A stretch of DNA of 64,000 nucleotides, taken from sequence record KM607001, one strand, 5' to 3'. Of the stretch, positions 2,448 through 18,246 are shown piece by piece (positions within the stretch are counted from its first letter, which is position 1; each line of letters starts with the position of its first letter). The notes under the pieces are model-generated. The model worked only from the letters and a program-made list of their open reading frames with translations, was not told where the DNA came from and made no database searches. Source of the stretch: Enterobacteria phage RB33. Made by a program: the position numbers and the translations under genes.

Positions 2448-4267
2448 TACTGGCTCATCCATTCTTTACGAAGGTCAGCGTTATCTCCCATGAGCATTTC
2501 AAAAAGCTCTTTCCAGTTCTCAGGAAGTTTAACAACATCATATACTGGATTTTGAATCATCTCACGATATTCAGATTTTTCCAAAGAGCCAAGTCCTTTA
2601 ATATAACGGATGCTATGTTTAGGTAGAGCATCTTTGGCACTCTCATATTCAGCGACTGTATAAAACCATTCTTGTTTTTTGCCGACCTGAGCGATGATTA
2701 CAGGAGTTTTGACAAAACGAATTCGTCCTTGCTCAAACAATTCTGGCCAATTACTAAAAAATCCGAGCAGAGAAGGATAAATGCTTCCTAGACCATCATG
2801 GTCAGCATCAGTCATAATAGCAATATTATGATAATTCAAGTTTTCAGCTTTTTCACCAAGAACTAATCCAGTGATTGCGCAAATATCAAATAGTTCTTTG
2901 TTTTTAAGCATATCAGCATATGACATACCCCAACTGTTGAGAACTTTACCACGTAATGGATAACCACCATGAAGTTCTTTATCACGAACATCAATAAGAT
3001 ATCCGATAGCCGAATCACCCTCAGTCAAGAACAATGTAGTATCAGCATCTTTACCACAAAGATTCGCTTTAATATGTTTATGAACCTTAGCTTTAGAAGC
3101 CTTTTTAGCTGCTTTAGTTTCTGCTGCTTTTTCTGCCGCCAATTTACGAGCCAAAGCAGCTTCAATAATCGGCATTAAAATTGCTTCATTATTTAGAATA
3201 GCACGTGAAATCTTTTTAGCATCAAGTTGAATATGACTACGAATTTCGCCAAATGGAGAAGTCAAACGCTCTTTAGTTTGAGAATCAAATCGCATGTTTT
3301 TCATATCACGAACAAACATAACGATAGTCAAACATTCTTTGACACGTGCTTTAGTTACATCAATTTTGAACTTACGTTTGATTTGTGGAATAAGGTCTTC
3401 ACAAATATCATCCATAACACAGTCAATGTGATGGCCACCATTCTTAGTGTGAATGTTATTCACGTAAGTTAATTGACGAAATCCATCCGGTGAACGACCA
3501 ACCGCAATAGAACAATTTTCTTGCTCTTGAACAATAGCATGTTCATCATACTGCCGTGCATATTTCTTAAAATTACCCTGAACCTTTTTACCATTAAAGG
3601 TAAATTGAATATCAGGATAAACAACAGCAAGTGTCTGGAGACGATCTAATGTAATGTCAAGATAAACTTGGGACAACTCATTAGTTTCAAATGACATAAA
3701 ATCAGGAATGAAAGTAACACGAGTTCCTTTCCATTTTCCAGGAATATCTTCCCATGATTTATTTTCCATGCCATTTGAACAACGAACTACAATATTATTT
3801 TGACCATCACCAGTTTCACCGACAAACATCACAGAAAAAATGTTTGTCAAACTAGAACCAACACCGTTCATACCGCCGGTGACGCGTTCTTTATCATCAC
3901 CGAAGTTACCACCTGCTTTTGGAATAGTCCATGCAGCAACAGGACCAGGAATTTCTTCACCGGTAGGTGTTTTAACCATCGCCTGTGGAATACCGCGACC
4001 GTTATCTTCAACTGTTACTTGATTGTTTTTAATAGTAACATTAATTTTATTTGCGAATTTAAACTTAGTACGAATACCTTCATCTACTGAGTTATCGATA
4101 ATTTCATCAATAAGCTTAACAAGACCAGGTACATACTGAACACTTTCCCATTTACCAAACAGAAAGCGCTCATGCATTTCATTAGCTGAAGAGCCAATGT
4201 ACATGCCGCTACGCTTTTTGATATGTTCAATATCGCTCAGAATTTTAATTTCATTCTTAATCATCAC
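2447..4267 (-). CDS. 39: DNA topoisomerase II large subunit (GyrB-like ATPase), contiguous gene 39 (606 aa)
   Basis: 606-aa ORF with GHKL ATPase and toprim-like motifs (NGRGIP, TEGDSA); one uninterrupted reading frame. Confidence 0.9.
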   Translation of the reverse strand: MMIKNEIKILSDIEHIKKRSGMYIGSSANEMHERFLFGKWESVQYVPGLVKLIDEIIDNSVDEGIRTKFKFANKINVTIKNNQVTVEDNGRGIPQAMVKTPTGEEIPGPVAAWTIPKAGGNFGDDKERVTGGMNGVGSSLTNIFSVMFVGETGDGQNNIVVRCSNGMENKSWEDIPGKWKGTRVTFIPDFMSFETNELSQVYLDITLDRLQTLAVVYPDIQFTFNGKKVQGNFKKYARQYDEHAIVQEQENCSIAVGRSPDGFRQLTYVNNIHTKNGGHHIDCVMDDICEDLIPQIKRKFKIDVTKARVKECLTIVMFVRDMKNMRFDSQTKERLTSPFGEIRSHIQLDAKKISRAILNNEAILMPIIEAALARKLAAEKAAETKAAKKASKAKVHKHIKANLCGKDADTTLFLTEGDSAIGYLIDVRDKELHGGYPLRGKVLNSWGMSYADMLKNKELFDICAITGLVLGEKAENLNYHNIAIMTDADHDGLGSIYPSLLGFFSNWPELFEQGRIRFVKTPVIIAQVGKKQEWFYTVAEYESAKDALPKHSIRYIKGLGSLEKSEYREMIQNPVYDVVKLPENWKELFEMLMGDNADLRKEWMSQ

Positions 4268-7068: not shown

Positions 7069-7688
7069 TTATCTCATTTCAATAAAATCTACGAGTTCGG
7101 CATAGGATTTACGGAACATTACTTGATGCCCACCAATGATAACTTGGTCATCTGGTACTTCGTATACAGCAAGATAAAATCCTTTCGAAGATAATTCTTC
7201 CCGCTCTTCTCGCGTGAACCATCTCATCATATCATACTCACTAGCGAAAGCAAAATGATAAAGAGCTATAAACCATCCTGGAATATGATATTCTACTCCA
7301 ACATAATCTTTCTTGAACTTAGTATTAATTACTATATTAGCGTTTTTAACTAATAGTTTATCTTCGTGTGGTAAAGGAATTCTTTTATTATTATCGCTAT
7401 GATGCGATATTCTACTCCAACATAATCTTTCTTGAACTTAGTATTAATTACTATATTAGCGTTTTTAACTAATAGTTTATCTTCGTGTGGTAAAGGAATT
7501 CTTTTATTATTATCGCTATGATGCATAAAATTAGGTCTGTCATAACCTACGTGTAATAGCCACTCTTCACTCCATGAATCTATTATACTCCTGTACGGCG
7601 TTATTTGAACACAAAGATTTCGACGTATTGTTATAGCATCTTCATAATCAAGAATACTAAACGATGATTCAACACGATAAATTTTCAT
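7069..7688 (-). pseudogene. motB.2-position gene disrupted by a 119-bp tandem duplication (frameshift, premature TAG at 7350)
   Basis: ORF from ATG 7688 reads through copy 7406-7524 in frame, then out of frame in copy 7287-7405; removing one copy restores a 166-codon ORF ending at TAA 7069-7071. Confidence 0.6.
7287..7524. repeat. perfect tandem duplication, 2 x 119 bp
   Basis: 7287-7405 and 7406-7524 are identical base for base. Confidence 0.9.
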
Positions 7689-8936: not shown

Positions 8937-10256
8937 TCATACATAAAACACATCATAACGACCACGGGTAACACCAACATAAAGAAGCTGCTGTGCTAGT
9001 TCAGCATCTGCATAATGAATACAAGGTGTATAAATGAAAGCACGATCTACAGACATGCCCTGAGCTTTATGGAATGTTGACGCAGGAAGTGCTTTCACTT
9101 TACTGAACTGTGATTTAGCATCCCAAAAATCACTCCACGGAGCTTTTCCGCCTTTGTTCCAATTTTTATAAGTTTCTGCCGTTTTACCTAAAAATAAATT
9201 AAACTTATATAGCTCTTCATCAGATGAAATTATTTTAATCTTTTCACGATAATATTCATCATCGCCGTAAGTTTCTACTGTTAAATCCCAATGACGAATT
9301 AAGTATTCTCCAGAAACACCACGAGCTTTAACAAAGGTTGATGTATACTCTGCTTCTATAATACGAACTAATTGTCCGTTATTAAAAATAATTTCTGACA
9401 CAGGCTTTCCATCAATTTTATATGTTTTAATTAATGGTTCCTGCATTACAATAATTTCACCGACAATAAAATCTTTATCAGTTTCAAAAATCTTTTTACG
9501 AATAATGCTATTTAACTTGTCAACAGATTTATTCGTAAATGCCATTACGCGATTTTCAAACAAATCATCTAGTGATTTGACGATTGAAAAATAATTTACC
9601 ATAAAATCGCGTAAAGCGGTATCACCAGTAAATCCACGTACTCCATGCCCGTCAACAACTTTATCATAAATCCACTTACCATTACGAACATCAGTAGCTA
9701 CATCAATAATAGGAGCATTACTGCGTTTAACTTCAGTAAGTTCACACTGATAAAAATCTTTGTGTGTAAAGAATGGACTGATATAAGCAGTGTTTTCTCC
9801 TGGGTCAACAGGTCTGATTTGCTTATTATCACCTATTCCAATTATGGTACACCATGGCGGGATAGTTGAAAGCAGAATTTTAAATAGCTTTCTATCATAC
9901 ATTGACACTTCGTCGCAGATTAATACCCTGCATTTAGCTAAATCTGGTACTTCCTTCTGTTCAAAAAGAACATTTTCTTCATATGTTACCGGGTTAATTT
10001 TAAGAATGCTGTGAATAGTACTCGCTTCTTTCCCCGACAGTTTTGAAAGAATCTTTTTAGCTGCATGTGTAGGAGCTGCCAAAATGATACCAGTTTCGCC
10101 TGTTGATATTAAAGCTTCAATGATGAACTTAGTAAGAGTAGTCTTACCAGTACCAGCAGGTCCATTAATAGTTACATGATGTTTCTTTTCTTTAATAGCC
10201 CTCATAACGATGTTAAAGGCATTTTTCTGGCCTTCTGTCAAATCATCAAATGTCAT
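8937..10256 (-). CDS. dda: Dda DNA helicase (SF1B), 439 aa
   Basis: Walker A GPAGTGKT; 439 aa as T4 Dda. Confidence 0.9.
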   Translation of the reverse strand: MTFDDLTEGQKNAFNIVMRAIKEKKHHVTINGPAGTGKTTLTKFIIEALISTGETGIILAAPTHAAKKILSKLSGKEASTIHSILKINPVTYEENVLFEQKEVPDLAKCRVLICDEVSMYDRKLFKILLSTIPPWCTIIGIGDNKQIRPVDPGENTAYISPFFTHKDFYQCELTEVKRSNAPIIDVATDVRNGKWIYDKVVDGHGVRGFTGDTALRDFMVNYFSIVKSLDDLFENRVMAFTNKSVDKLNSIIRKKIFETDKDFIVGEIIVMQEPLIKTYKIDGKPVSEIIFNNGQLVRIIEAEYTSTFVKARGVSGEYLIRHWDLTVETYGDDEYYREKIKIISSDEELYKFNLFLGKTAETYKNWNKGGKAPWSDFWDAKSQFSKVKALPASTFHKAQGMSVDRAFIYTPCIHYADAELAQQLLYVGVTRGRYDVFYV

Positions 10257-13542: not shown

Positions 13543-13746
13543 TCACGATTTATCCCCATAGATGTCTCTCATCAATTTAAGCGCTGAGCGTTCTAGTTTC
13601 TTTTCTTTCTCAGCACTAATCATTGATTTCATCCATTCTTCTGATTCGTTCTGCATTTCTTTATTTGCTTGTTCAACCCAACCATCGTCAATGTACATTG
13701 AGTTTGGTCTATTGAACCATTCAAACATTTTCTTCAGAACTTTCAT
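13543..13746 (-). CDS. hypothetical protein, 67 aa
   Basis: ORF in track; its start lies inside the proximal copy of the 91-bp duplication. Confidence 0.55.
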
Positions 13747-13868
13747 TTGTTTTACCTAAAACAACAGTAGGAGCATCGTCAATGTACATTGAGTTTGGTC
13801 TATTGAACCATTCAAACATTTTCTTCAGAACTTTCATTTGTTTTACCTAAAACAACAGTAGGAGCATC
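13683..13868. repeat. perfect tandem duplication, 2 x 91 bp with 4-bp CATC junction microhomology
   Basis: positions p and p+91 identical for p = 13683..13777. Confidence 0.9.
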
Positions 13869-15283: not shown

Positions 15284-15802
15284 TTAATAACCTCGGTCTT
15301 GACGAGCAAAGTTTTCAGCATTTTTCAGATAATAAAGTTTAAAGATTTCTTCTGCTGTAAGACCAAGACCTTGGAACATGTTCAGAACGAAATGGAGAAT
15401 ATCAATCATTTCAAATTTAATTTCCAATTGGTCTTGTGGAGACAAATCAGTAATCAGAGTTTCACGGCGTTCACCATGCTGCGACTTCCAAGGCTTCCAT
15501 ACAGCAGATGCATCTTTTTCACCATTGCTCATACCACCAAGAGAAGTCAGAAGTTCGCGGAATTCATCATCAATATAATCTTTCTGATTGCGTAGCCAAT
15601 CAACAACTTCACCTGCAGTAGCCAAGTCATCAGGATGACGATTATATTCAGGTTTATCTTTAGCTAAACGAACCTGCAAAGATTTCTGCATATCAAGCAT
15701 AACCTGCAGCGGGTCTTTTTCATCACCGAGAATATCCCAATATTCATTTTGAGCTTTATCAGCGCCTTCAATCAGTTGTGAACATTCGTTAAAGTAAGCC
15801 AT
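15284..15802 (-). CDS. 56: dCTPase / dCTP pyrophosphatase gp56 (MazG-like), ~172 aa
   Basis: MazG-like protein; start moved from track (15895) to MAYFNE Met preceded by AAGGA. Confidence 0.8.
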   Translation of the reverse strand: MAYFNECSQLIEGADKAQNEYWDILGDEKDPLQVMLDMQKSLQVRLAKDKPEYNRHPDDLATAGEVVDWLRNQKDYIDDEFRELLTSLGGMSNGEKDASAVWKPWKSQHGERRETLITDLSPQDQLEIKFEMIDILHFVLNMFQGLGLTAEEIFKLYYLKNAENFARQDRGY

Positions 15803-15836
15803 TATTTTTCCTTTCAATTCATGGGTTAGTAGATTA

Positions 15837-15861
15837 ATTATACAATAAATATATAAAGCAA
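15837..15861 (-). promoter_or_regulatory. MotA-dependent middle promoter of gene 56
   Basis: minus strand TTGCTTTA-11 bp-TATAAT. Confidence 0.5.
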
Positions 15862-15873
15862 TAAGGAGGACAT

Positions 15874-16074
15874 ATGGTACAAAAATTAATGGCACTTGTT
15901 AATGCCATCAAAGGTAATAAAAAGCGTATAGCTTTTACTATTTCTGTTATGGTAGGAATTTTACTCTGGAACTTTATTTTATCACCAATTGCAATTGCGC
16001 ATGGTGTTAATATTCCAGTAGTTACTCTTGATACATTTGTAGATTTAGCATTTGCTTTAGTTGGGTTAATTTAA
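15874..16074 (+). CDS. small hydrophobic protein (66 aa, about 2 TM), plus strand
   Basis: AAGGAGG 4 nt before ATG; ORF fills the gene-56 to gene-61 gap exactly and its stop overlaps the gene 61 stop. Confidence 0.45.
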   Translation: MVQKLMALVNAIKGNKKRIAFTISVMVGILLWNFILSPIAIAHGVNIPVVTLDTFVDLAFALVGLI

Positions 16075-17099
16075 ATCTTAGCATATTTAGATAACCGCAT
16101 TTTAGCCATTAACCCCTGGGCAATATTATTTTTCATATATTCCATAATTTGTTCAGGGGTTGCACCTTCCTTTCTAATCATATCATTAACATCTTTTGAT
16201 TTCCAGGGAGATTTATCCCAAAACATAACCCTTTCTCCTGCATCAACTAATTTAGTCATCCGTTTAATAGTGTCAGGGTGACGAGGTTCATTATCTAAGA
16301 CCCACACTCGTCTATCTTTAAATGGAACAATTTCTAGGTCTAATTGACCACCCGTAATAGCTATACCATTTTCAATGAAAAGGGAATCGATAGGTCCTTC
16401 TAGAACATATACATCGCCATCTTTAACTCGTTCGACTCCATAGATTTTTGTTGCCTCAGGATAAGCTTTGATGGTGATATATTTTTGAGGAGCATCTTTC
16501 TTTAATGCACGCCCTTGAAACGACTCGGCTTTTCCGTTAGCATTATAAATTGGAATAACAAGACGAGGCTCAGGTATTTCCTTTTTATATGTTCCCGGTG
16601 CTATGCTATTAACTAATTTAGGCCATTCGGTTGTAAACCAAAGATATTTCCATTTATCCTTTGGAATACAACGAGCTTTTACATATTTTATAATTGCATG
16701 GTCTTCCGCCAGTTTATCTAATCTAACGCATGACGGAAGAGATTTAATTATTTTCTTCTCAGGTTGTTTAGGAAGTTCTTTAGGTTTTTCTACTGGACGA
16801 CTTTTACCTTTTTCTTTTCTTATTTCAAAGATATACTCACGATATAAATCAGGTTCAAACTCCTTTAAATATATTCCGATTGGTGCATGATAGTTACAGT
16901 TATAGCAATGAATATTTCCTTCATTATTATCACCATAATACCATCCACGAGCTTTATTCTGGTCGGTTTTTGAATCTCCACAAACAGGGCATCTAAACCG
17001 TAATTTAAAAGTTGAACTATTATTTACTTGTGTGAATTTAGGTAAATGAGCTAATGCACGATACGCAAATTCATTATCAATCCAAGGTATTGATGACAT
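16071..17099 (-). CDS. 61: DNA primase gp61, 342 aa
   Basis: N-terminal zinc ribbon CPVCGDSK...CYNC and toprim-type core; 342 aa as T4 gp61. Confidence 0.9.
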   Translation of the reverse strand: MSSIPWIDNEFAYRALAHLPKFTQVNNSSTFKLRFRCPVCGDSKTDQNKARGWYYGDNNEGNIHCYNCNYHAPIGIYLKEFEPDLYREYIFEIRKEKGKSRPVEKPKELPKQPEKKIIKSLPSCVRLDKLAEDHAIIKYVKARCIPKDKWKYLWFTTEWPKLVNSIAPGTYKKEIPEPRLVIPIYNANGKAESFQGRALKKDAPQKYITIKAYPEATKIYGVERVKDGDVYVLEGPIDSLFIENGIAITGGQLDLEIVPFKDRRVWVLDNEPRHPDTIKRMTKLVDAGERVMFWDKSPWKSKDVNDMIRKEGATPEQIMEYMKNNIAQGLMAKMRLSKYAKI

Positions 17100-17266: not shown

Positions 17267-17670
17267 ATTAACCTCTATTCATAAAAGCATTAAAAATTTG
17301 GTCATCAATAGATGGCGCAGTAATATTTTCTGCATCATTTAGCAAATCATTAATTTCATCAGATAGCATAACACATGTACCTTTATTTCCTGTAATTGTT
17401 ACTGCGCAATTACGAACGTTTTCTTTATTAAATTTTAGGTTAATATTTTCGTAATGAAAATCCTTTAATGCTGAATATATTTTTAAAATAAAATTGTCTT
17501 TTACTACAATAAACCCAACCTCACTATTAAAACGTGGTTCATGGAAACTGTAATAAACCTTTTCATCTATAAAATCGTATGAAATTTTTTCCATTTTTAA
17601 ATATGAAAATTCAGAACTATACATATTAACCTTTATTCATAAAAGCATTAAAAATTTGGTCATCAATAGA
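17264..17670. repeat. 49-bp direct repeat (48/49 identical) at the 3' ends of two paralogous genes
   Basis: catattaacctCtattcataaaagcattaaaaatttggtcatcaataga at 17264-17312 and 17622-17670. Confidence 0.8.
17268..17624 (-). CDS. hypothetical protein (61.1 position), 118 aa
   Basis: ORF in track; C-terminus DDQIFNAFMNRG shared with the next ORF. Confidence 0.6.
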   Translation of the reverse strand: MYSSEFSYLKMEKISYDFIDEKVYYSFHEPRFNSEVGFIVVKDNFILKIYSALKDFHYENINLKFNKENVRNCAVTITGNKGTCVMLSDEINDLLNDAENITAPSIDDQIFNAFMNRG

Positions 17671-18246
17671 AACATTTACTTTAGACTGTTTTTCTGATGG
17701 TAATTCATATCCACATATTACAATTTTGTGATCAATATCAAAATACACAGAAGCAATATGATTAATGATGTTTTCAGTAAAGTCTAAATCAACATCAATA
17801 TCTTTTTGACCACAGCCCAAAGGATAAATAATGCGAGTAATTCGATTATCTTTAACAAATATTCCACCGACATACTCTGTGCTGCGTTTAAAGTCTACAC
17901 GCCGACGAAATGAAAAATATTCAGGCTCTCTATGAGCTCGGCTCATAGGACACAACGAGTAACTAGAATAAGAGATGTCAAATCCTACGCCTTCGATATG
18001 AGCCAAAGTGTCATGATTAAACCAATTATAATCGTACGCCAAATCCATTAGATTATAATATGTAAAAGGCACCGGATTAACATCATTAGTCACAAGCATG
18101 TAATTAGCAACTGCTATAATTTCATTGTTTTTAACGAATACAAACCGTGATTGATGCGAATGACCTGGACCCGCGTTTTCACGATTAATGATATAACACT
18201 GAGACTTTTTATATTTGTAAGAATCATACTTATACATTTGAAACAT
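17626..18246 (-). CDS. hypothetical protein (61.2 position), 206 aa
   Basis: ORF in track; C-terminal half paralogous to the 118-aa ORF. Confidence 0.6.
   Translation of the reverse strand: MFQMYKYDSYKYKKSQCYIINRENAGPGHSHQSRFVFVKNNEIIAVANYMLVTNDVNPVPFTYYNLMDLAYDYNWFNHDTLAHIEGVGFDISYSSYSLCPMSRAHREPEYFSFRRRVDFKRSTEYVGGIFVKDNRITRIIYPLGCGQKDIDVDLDFTENIINHIASVYFDIDHKIVICGYELPSEKQSKVNVSIDDQIFNAFMNKG

Follow-up and report, generated by a model that had tools for sequence, protein, structure and literature searches.

The genes soc, e and 49 of bacteriophage T4 are transcribed late in infection, and their late transcripts have been mapped experimentally. The open reading frame (ORF) described here resembles them in having a TATAAATA-type box shortly 5' of a strong Shine-Dalgarno sequence and an ATG start codon, but whereas the three T4 genes have mapped late transcripts, late transcription of the ORF is predicted from its sequence motif. 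Among 50 T4 late sites, 32 have a perfect box and nine have an A replacing the T at position -13, which is the commonest variant (PMC2988020), and in late promoters of other T4-like phages A or T at -13 is common (PMC1524935).

In T4, as well as in RB55, a T4-species phage, the gene order around the ORF is 56 – dam – ORF (+) – 61. The likeness between T4 Dam and the ORF is one of neighbourhood only, with the T4 dam gene situated between gene 56 and the ORF. T4 Dam is a 259-residue enzyme, unrelated to the ORF product, encoded on the other strand and absent from RB32.

The ORF between genes 56 and 61

The window, i.e., the whole 64,000-nt stretch of DNA that was analysed, shows 100% identity to the RB32 record (NC_008515 / DQ904452) at both ends and over the ORF. 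From position 7406 onward, window positions equal RB32 record positions plus 119, an offset that arises because a 119-bp segment of the window is exactly duplicated in tandem. Genes 56 and 61 are separated by a gap of 268 bp (15803..16070), in which the ORF is the only one of at least 30 amino acids. Its 66-residue translation (15874..16074, plus strand) is MVQKLMALVNAIKGNKKRIAFTISVMVGILLWNFILSPIAIAHGVNIPVVTLDTFVDLAFALVGLI. The ORF overlaps gene 61 by 4 nt, with its TAA at 16072-16074 on the plus strand and the stop codon of gene 61 at 16073..16071, and these 4 nt are all that the 66 codons share with other coding sequence. The layout given in the original prediction, a sole substantial ORF in a 268-bp gap, on the strand opposite to its neighbours, with two hydrophobic segments and a stop that overlaps the gene 61 stop, is thereby confirmed. 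In the RB32 neighbourhood the ORF is the sole plus-strand gene. A GTG-extended gene 56 of 203 amino acids (15284..15895) was discarded as a mechanical artefact of ORF calling, the annotated start being at 15802. When the 272-bp stretch 15803-16074, comprising the gap and the 4-nt overlap, was shuffled 20,000 times, 1.1% of the shuffles yielded an ORF of at least 66 amino acids; the length by itself is only mildly unusual, and it is the conservation that lifts the ORF above chance. The features of the locus are listed in the table.

Features of the gene 56 to gene 61 interval, in window coordinates
Feature	Position	Strand	Basis or remark
Gene 56 (dCTPase), left neighbour	15284..15802	-	ORF listing and RB32 annotation
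-10 hexamer TATAAT of gene 56 middle promoter (predicted)	15837..15842	-	in sequence common to T4
RB32-type junction, 20 bp	15843..15862		blastn of RB32 versus T4
T4-type late-promoter box AATAAATA (consensus TATAAATA, -13 to -6)	15844..15851	+	predicted start near 15857
MotA box TTGCTTTA of gene 56 middle promoter (predicted)	15854..15861	-	context, outside the ORF
Shine-Dalgarno sequence AAGGAGG, 4 nt before ATG	15863..15869	+	read directly; GGAG(G) core in 11 of 11 orthologues
ORF, 66 codons and stop	15874..16074	+	ORF listing and RB32 annotation; family PHROG 2024
Intrinsic-terminator-like hairpin (15911..15886) with U-run (15885..15876)	15876..15911	-	codons 1-13 of the ORF, 3' of gene 61
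Gene 61 (DNA primase), convergent right neighbour	16071..17099	-	ORF listing and RB32 annotation

The RB32 annotation names the ORF RB32ORF030w and describes it as "similar to RB69ORF029w". Other annotated relatives of the ORF are RB69ORF029w itself and VR7ORF033w, while in RB55 it is called dam.1; position and strand are the same throughout the annotated relatives. A profile search of the 66-residue sequence, as proposed with the original prediction, matches the ORF product to phrog_2024 over its full length (residues 2-66 aligned with positions 1-65 of the 65-position profile; E=1.7e-31). PHROG 2024 is a family with its function listed as unknown. The ORF is thus already known, as the source genome and hundreds of relatives carry an annotation for it and it belongs to a PHROG family. 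At the curated cut-offs of Pfam, holin families included, no family was found for the ORF or for 23 family members, and a search of NCBIfam with the ORF product gave no matching family either. Foldseek matches among viral models are limited to the ORF's own family, and a literature search on the gene and on the locus names of its relatives found no paper that mentions the ORF. One close homologue in UniProt carries the name 'Holin', with no evidence attached. In the T4 reference sequence NC_000866 the ORF is intact at 17738..17938 and encodes a product with two amino-acid differences from that of RB32, but the record has no annotation for it and leaves 17626..17934 unannotated. The ORF has no genetic definition in T4 and is missing from the reference annotation.

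Conservation, predicted expression and membrane features

With tblastn the ORF was found in 746 phage records, 502 of which match at an identity of at least 80% and 244 at less than 60%. Orthologues were extracted from Tequatrovirus, Mosigvirus, Gaprivervirus (two), Dhakavirus, Gelderlandvirus, Moonvirus, Jiaodavirus, Marfavirus and an unclassified Enterobacter phage, and the ORF alignment comprises 11 T4-like orthologues. Across the eight named genera the ORF keeps its position and strand, opposite to its neighbours and facing the 3' end of gene 61 in a convergent arrangement, and its length is 63-69 codons in every extracted case. The stretch between the ORF and gene 56 is variable, and contains nothing, dam, homing endonucleases, or MazG-like or hypothetical genes.

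Pairwise comparisons show purifying selection on the ORF protein, with dN/dS ratios of 0.14–0.30. Between RB32 and T4 there are six synonymous and three non-synonymous changes (dN/dS 0.14), and the ratio is 0.23 for RB32 versus Mosigvirus, 0.23 for Melville versus CF1 and 0.30 for DK-13 versus VR7; for Marfa versus Dhakavirus pS is 0.79 and pN 0.12. Residues M1, W32, N33, P38, G44, P48 and G64 are invariant across the 11 aligned sequences. The ORF product displays the family motif, (W/Y)-N-x4-P ... G-x2-L-P ... (D/E) following a basic N-terminus, which the distant representatives retain with a few substitutions. A dual start at Met1 and Met6, like that of lambda S, was ruled out, since Met6 is not conserved. 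In a deposited mutant T4 clone (OL964745) the ORF is frameshifted by a 2-bp deletion, and from this single clone the ORF is probably dispensable in the laboratory. Its conservation makes it very probable that the ORF is a real gene.

The ORF is preceded by signals for its own expression. The Shine-Dalgarno sequence AAGGAGG occupies 15863-15869 and is separated by 'acat' from the ATG at 15874, just as had been noted in the original prediction. The accompanying suspicion that AAGGAGG might be coincidental, as it overlaps the MotA box of gene 56 on the other strand, did not hold: a Shine-Dalgarno sequence of the GGAG type occurs in all 11 orthologues, most of which lack that MotA box. The overlap itself is real but small, as the A/T-rich 5' extension is the sole part of the MotA box that touches AAGGAGG, reaching its first 2 nt.

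Further upstream, a putative late-promoter box (NATAAATA; ATAAATA) is found 12-22 nt 5' of the ATG in nine of the 11 orthologues. Three of these nine have the perfect TATAAATA, and Gelderlandvirus and Moonvirus show only ATTAAATA at the site of the box. At position -13, RB32 has an A (AATAAATA) and T4 a G (GATAAATA). The RB32 box lies within the RB32-specific 20-bp junction and the T4 box GATAAATA within T4-specific sequence, so that the late box is kept despite non-homologous flanks. In RB32 the box also falls inside the spacer of the back-to-back middle promoter of gene 56; this overlap is dispensable for function, because in T4 the two signals are 900 bp apart. The heptamer ATAAATA has only 59 occurrences in the 166-kb genome, both strands counted, a density of 1.8e-4 per nt per strand, and the chance of finding it on the correct strand within a 25-nt span is ∼0.5%. 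Just five other NATAAATA boxes followed by a Shine-Dalgarno sequence and ATG are present in the 64-kb window: two in tandem before e, and one each before soc, gene 49 and a mobB-like endonuclease gene. Gene 49 in the window likewise uses the AATAAATA variant, and the mobB-like endonuclease gene is expected to be late-transcribed. A scan of RB32 for early or middle promoters of the ORF on the plus strand found none, leaving the late-type promoter only. Late transcription of the ORF therefore appears well supported by its promoter motifs. For T4, a dRNA-seq data set with transcription start sites is available (bioRxiv 10.1101/2024.04.04.588121).

The hydropathy profile of the ORF product shows a strong hydrophobic core at approximately residues 19-42 and a weaker stretch at residues 49-66. 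Of its tryptic peptides the single long one is highly hydrophobic, so that the product is poorly suited to shotgun proteomics. An AlphaFold2 model, calculated with a 23-sequence alignment, has a mean pLDDT of 76.5 and contains helices at residues 2-12, 16-42 and 52-63. Of 18 family representatives, 15 have an N-terminal segment of net positive charge and 17 a C-terminal tail that is net neutral or negative. This tail, which follows the membrane helix, comprises 21-27 mostly hydrophobic residues with a net charge of -2 to +1 in all representatives. By the positive-inside rule, the charges of the N-terminal segment and the tail suggest an N-in/C-out orientation. The model suggests a single membrane span followed by a short amphipathic periplasmic helix, but the second hydrophobic stretch could also form a short second span, resulting in a two-span hairpin. 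In either arrangement the product is very probably a small membrane protein.

Searches with a single protein sequence retrieved close relatives only, and the family was widened modestly by profile and HMMER searches. The profile search gave 119 clusters at 90% identity, all of 41-73 amino acids, the long contigs among them being T4-like in size; an exhaustive HMMER search of 1.84 billion representative proteins gave just 17 clusters. Six distant members could be placed, five of them on contigs of siphovirus-like phages or prophages, for which no close cultured relatives were found. In these five contigs the ORF homologue is located among or right after the tail genes and shares its strand with the tail genes upstream, and in two of them bacterial genes begin directly after it, at the end of a prophage. 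The sixth contig is a 2-kb fragment in which the homologue precedes a RelA/SpoT-like gene. In five of the six distant contigs the gene lies directly 3' of an Endonuclease VII or GIY-YIG nuclease gene. Two distant members, scanned alone, match phrog_2024 with E-values of 1e-8 and 4e-10, and searches of phage genomes with two of the distant members retrieved nothing but the T4-like ORF from the gene 61 locus, with weak E-values.

We consider it likely, on the combined evidence of conservation, expression signals and predicted membrane features, that the ORF is a genuine gene, conserved in T4-like phages as an accessory one, which encodes a late-expressed membrane protein and is independent of dam. 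The T4 reference annotation has a small gap at NC_000866 17738..17938, where a conserved ORF with late-gene signals is found that is under purifying selection.

Alternative accounts of the locus

Since the protein is small, membrane-embedded and probably late, it might be a holin or a pinholin-type lysis protein that makes or regulates a lethal membrane lesion. The UniProt name of the close homologue would agree with such a role, as would the presence of a Phage_lysozyme gene at a distance of 0.5-3.3 kb from the homologue in three of the five siphovirus-like contigs. However, the name is unsupported, and at all three distant loci the homologue and the lysozyme gene occupy different strands. 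Moreover, neither the ORF product nor any of 23 family members matches a Pfam holin family, or any other Pfam family, at the curated cut-off. Holins typically have a charged hydrophilic C-terminal tail after their last span; the ORF product ends in the hydrophobic sequence ...DLAFALVGLI. In the T4-like phages the ORF is also located far from e, t, rI and the spanin genes, which already constitute a complete lysis system. The missing profile match, the absence of a charged C-terminal tail and the complete lysis system elsewhere in T4-like genomes together make a canonical holin unlikely, and for the broader class of holin and pinholin-type proteins we likewise see only a small chance.

A second account assigns the function to the transcript instead of the protein: the late promoter would act mainly by producing an antisense RNA, transcribed from 15857 into the convergent primase gene 61, that damps expression of gene 61 (and 61.x) late in infection, with the ORF as a leader or secondary product. 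This account draws on the overlap between the stop codons of the ORF and gene 61, and on the plus-strand sequence 3' of the ORF, where no convincing terminator was found in the scan and the annotation of SA20RB has just a weak, AT-rich predicted one. Moreover, several T4 sites are transcribed on both strands at different times (PMC2988020). The purifying selection, however, operates at the amino-acid level, the motif residues being invariant while synonymous sites are saturated. In DK-13 and VR7 a homing endonuclease gene or a 200-bp spacer lies between the ORF and gene 61, in a Jiaodavirus a GC-rich hairpin immediately follows the ORF, and the distant siphovirus-like homologues have no downstream primase gene. 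An antisense RNA as the principal product thus seems quite improbable, and we assign little probability also to an antisense effect on gene 61 that occurs as a side effect in Tequatrovirus.

The ORF might also be untranslated, its conservation reflecting overlapping signals in the DNA or RNA, namely the terminator and the 3' end of gene 61 and the oriA-priming middle promoter of gene 56. Both minus-strand signals are indeed recognizable, and the T4 reference has no annotation of the ORF. The predicted gene 56 promoter consists of ttaTTGCTTTA, an 11-nt spacer and TATAAT, in agreement with the pattern (a/t)(a/t)(a/t)TGCTT(t/c)A, ∼12 bp, TAnnnT; it abuts the Shine-Dalgarno sequence, and the equivalent site is marked as a T4-type middle promoter in the SA20RB annotation. 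The terminator-like hairpin has an 11-bp stem, covers codons 5-13 and is followed by UUUUUGU (-12.4 kcal/mol, z=-3.97). It could plausibly end the transcript of gene 61 as an intrinsic terminator, and a rho-independent terminator is annotated at its site in SA20RB and fPS-65. Yet the hairpin covers only 26 of the 201 nt of the ORF and is confined to Tequatrovirus. Being absent from the other genera examined, it cannot account for the conservation of the ORF, and was ruled out as a general cause of the conservation of the N-terminal region. The best-conserved residues, 30-55, overlap no known signal. The reading frame, the length of 63-69 codons, the Shine-Dalgarno sequence and the substitution pattern are all kept where the DNA of the genera no longer aligns, and homologues occur in unrelated genomic contexts. 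It is therefore very unlikely that the ORF is untranslated.

The remaining alternative concerns dam. The homology between RB32 and T4, as detected with blastn, stops at window position 15842 and restarts at 15863; between these points RB32 has 20 bp and T4 has 899 bp, which include dam and its upstream region. The original prediction had placed both dam and oriA of T4 in this interval. For dam this is correct, as it lies between gene 56 and the ORF, but oriA is placed by the T4 record within the 5' end of gene 56, outside the gap. The absence of a methyltransferase from the gap was confirmed, and a dam homologue elsewhere, which would have removed the case for a loss of Dam, was not found: a tblastn search with T4 Dam against the window and the remainder of the RB32 genome gave nothing better than E=1.0, compared with E=7e-167 for the T4 control. 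The contiguous, dam-less junction of the RB32 type occurs in 322 of the 502 Tequatrovirus-level records, and dam is present in ∼183 records. By this count, the state without dam, found in about two thirds of the records, is the commoner one in Tequatrovirus. T4, RB55 and other dam-positive phages carry the ORF next to dam at 94-97% identity. As dam and the ORF coexist in T4 and RB55, the ORF is no stand-in for Dam, and its distribution among the records indicates that it is independent of dam. The earlier reading that the ORF fills the T4 dam slot, and marks or compensates the loss of Dam methylation in RB32, fits with its being the sole gene in the gap of a phage that lacks dam both here and in the rest of its genome, but is already refuted by the phages that carry both genes. 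Against it, too, are the genera that have other insertions or none and still possess the ORF, and the PHROG and Pfam scans, in which the ORF product shows no similarity to methyltransferases. An attractive but wrong inference is hereby corrected, and the ORF is unlinked to Dam loss.

Proposed role and comparison with known envelope proteins

In the preferred reading, that of a late-expressed membrane protein, RNA polymerase with gp55/gp33 and the gp45 clamp would start transcription late in infection at the AATAAATA box (15844-15851). The resulting short-leader mRNA, beginning near 15857 in the window and at about position 17722 in T4, would carry a strong Shine-Dalgarno sequence that drives translation of a protein of 63-69 amino acids. 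The protein probably inserts in the inner membrane with its basic N-terminus toward the cytoplasm. A long helix (approximately residues 16-42) would bear the invariant Trp-Asn...Pro motif, and a tail of ∼24 residues would be exposed in the periplasm. A Gly-x-x-Leu-Pro turn and an acidic residue are conserved in this tail, which would also form a short amphipathic helix. The late transcription, the translation, the membrane topology and the function of the ORF are all inferred steps of this proposal.

From the late timing, the membrane location, the small exposed tail, the position among late or tail genes in unrelated phages and the apparent dispensability, we infer a non-essential function in the envelope during the late period. 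The envelope events that could be tuned in this way include lysis timing, lysis inhibition and the protection of progeny. In its widest form, the proposal would be that enterobacterial T4-like phages of the eight genera sampled, T4 included, possess a late gene, so far overlooked, whose single-pass inner-membrane product tunes envelope events at the end of infection, and that this module has perhaps been exchanged with siphovirus-like phages; we put this forward tentatively, as a possibility that is more probably wrong than right. If it is true, a functional gene of the best-studied phage still awaits annotation, and its phenotype should be measurable. The ORF could then add a component to the late envelope biology of T4, and otherwise it is an ordinary gene. 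With 66 codons and probable dispensability, it is in any case a clean and cheap experimental target.

As to the specific function, no feature of the T4-like context singles one out, and the T4-like phages already encode Imm and Sp for exclusion as well as a holin, an antiholin and spanins. A role in the control of lysis timing or in lysis inhibition ranks first among our guesses, although we regard even this one as doubtful. The T4 antiholin RI and the rI.-1 and rI.1 products act in lysis inhibition as small accessory proteins located in the envelope, and T4 can do without them in the laboratory. The periplasmic domain of RI, which binds the holin, comprises approximately 70 residues. The ORF product differs from RI in that it would expose just ∼24 residues, and no sequence relationship between the two was detected.

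The second-ranked guess, which we hold to be unlikely, is that the protein blocks incoming phage DNA or acts in a debris-related form of exclusion. The exclusion proteins of this kind, T4 Imm and those encoded by prophage 'morons', are small inner-membrane proteins, as is predicted for the ORF product. A profile match to an Imm-type exclusion family was not obtained for the ORF in Pfam. Imm acts early, whereas the promoter predicted on the strand of the ORF is of the late type, with neither an early nor a middle one found there. The similarity to the morons extends to gene order: HK97 gp15 is a moron exclusion protein that is encoded beside tail genes, and the distant homologues of the ORF show a moron-like placement, right after tail-tip or tail-fibre genes and, in two cases, at the prophage end.

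The 66-codon ORF in T4 and promoter overlap beside gene 56

The same 66-codon ORF, predicted to encode a small membrane protein (PHROG 2024), is intact in the T4 reference genome (NC_000866.4, 17738..17938, plus strand; 2739-2939 of the retrieved locus L004), and the T4 copy retains both the Shine-Dalgarno sequence and the GATAAATA box. The 309-bp interval between dam and gene 61 that holds it carries no annotation in that reference. In the mutant T4 clone T4_7t1 (OL964745.1), a 2-bp deletion at about 3070-3075 of the retrieved locus (L003) shifts the reading frame of the ORF, a second deletion of 4 bp lies between its Shine-Dalgarno sequence and ATG, and dam is broken into two CDS. Unless these are sequencing errors, the clone hints that the ORF and dam are both dispensable.

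On the other side of the ORF, a MotA-type middle promoter serves gene 56 from the minus strand, and its spacer contains the plus-strand late box (15844-15851); this arrangement (window 15837-15862) is confined to dam-less Tequatroviruses. By analogy with T4, the gene 56 middle promoter probably provides the oriA primer transcript, and an RNA polymerase occupying either the late box or the middle promoter would block the other. GATC is scarce in the whole RB32 genome, with 209 sites observed against approximately 540 expected from base composition; RB32 encodes no Dam of its own.

Comparison with the RB32 record and nearby duplications

Over the 7.8 kb compared, the window and the RB32 record (NC_008515.1) differ by a single mismatch, at window 10024 (record position 9905), within dda. 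The window also contains an exact tandem duplication of 119 bp (7287-7405 = 7406-7524), which the RB32 record lacks. The duplication falls within motB.2 (RB32ORF011c, minus strand), which would be frameshifted, because 119 is not divisible by three. Closer to the ORF, srh is partly duplicated (window 13721-13837) as an ORF of 38 aa, the first 21 of which it has in common with srh, and a second, shorter 61.2-like gene is found at window 17268-17624; the RB32 annotation already records both.

Nuclease genes next to distant homologues

In three siphovirus-like or prophage contigs an Endonuclease VII gene is followed by a distant homologue of the ORF. A GIY-YIG nuclease gene lies upstream of the homologue in two contigs, directly preceding it in L019 and separated from it by three small ORFs in L021. 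The stop and start codons of nuclease gene and homologue frequently overlap in such contigs.

Regions holding a nuclease gene and a distant homologue of the ORF
Contig	Coordinates
L018	2553-3213
L022	3553-4210
L025	3543-4159
L019	2567-3243
L021	1669-3213

The nuclease and membrane-protein genes may constitute a mobile cassette; in the T4-like phages, the locus of the ORF is a hotspot for homing-endonuclease insertion.
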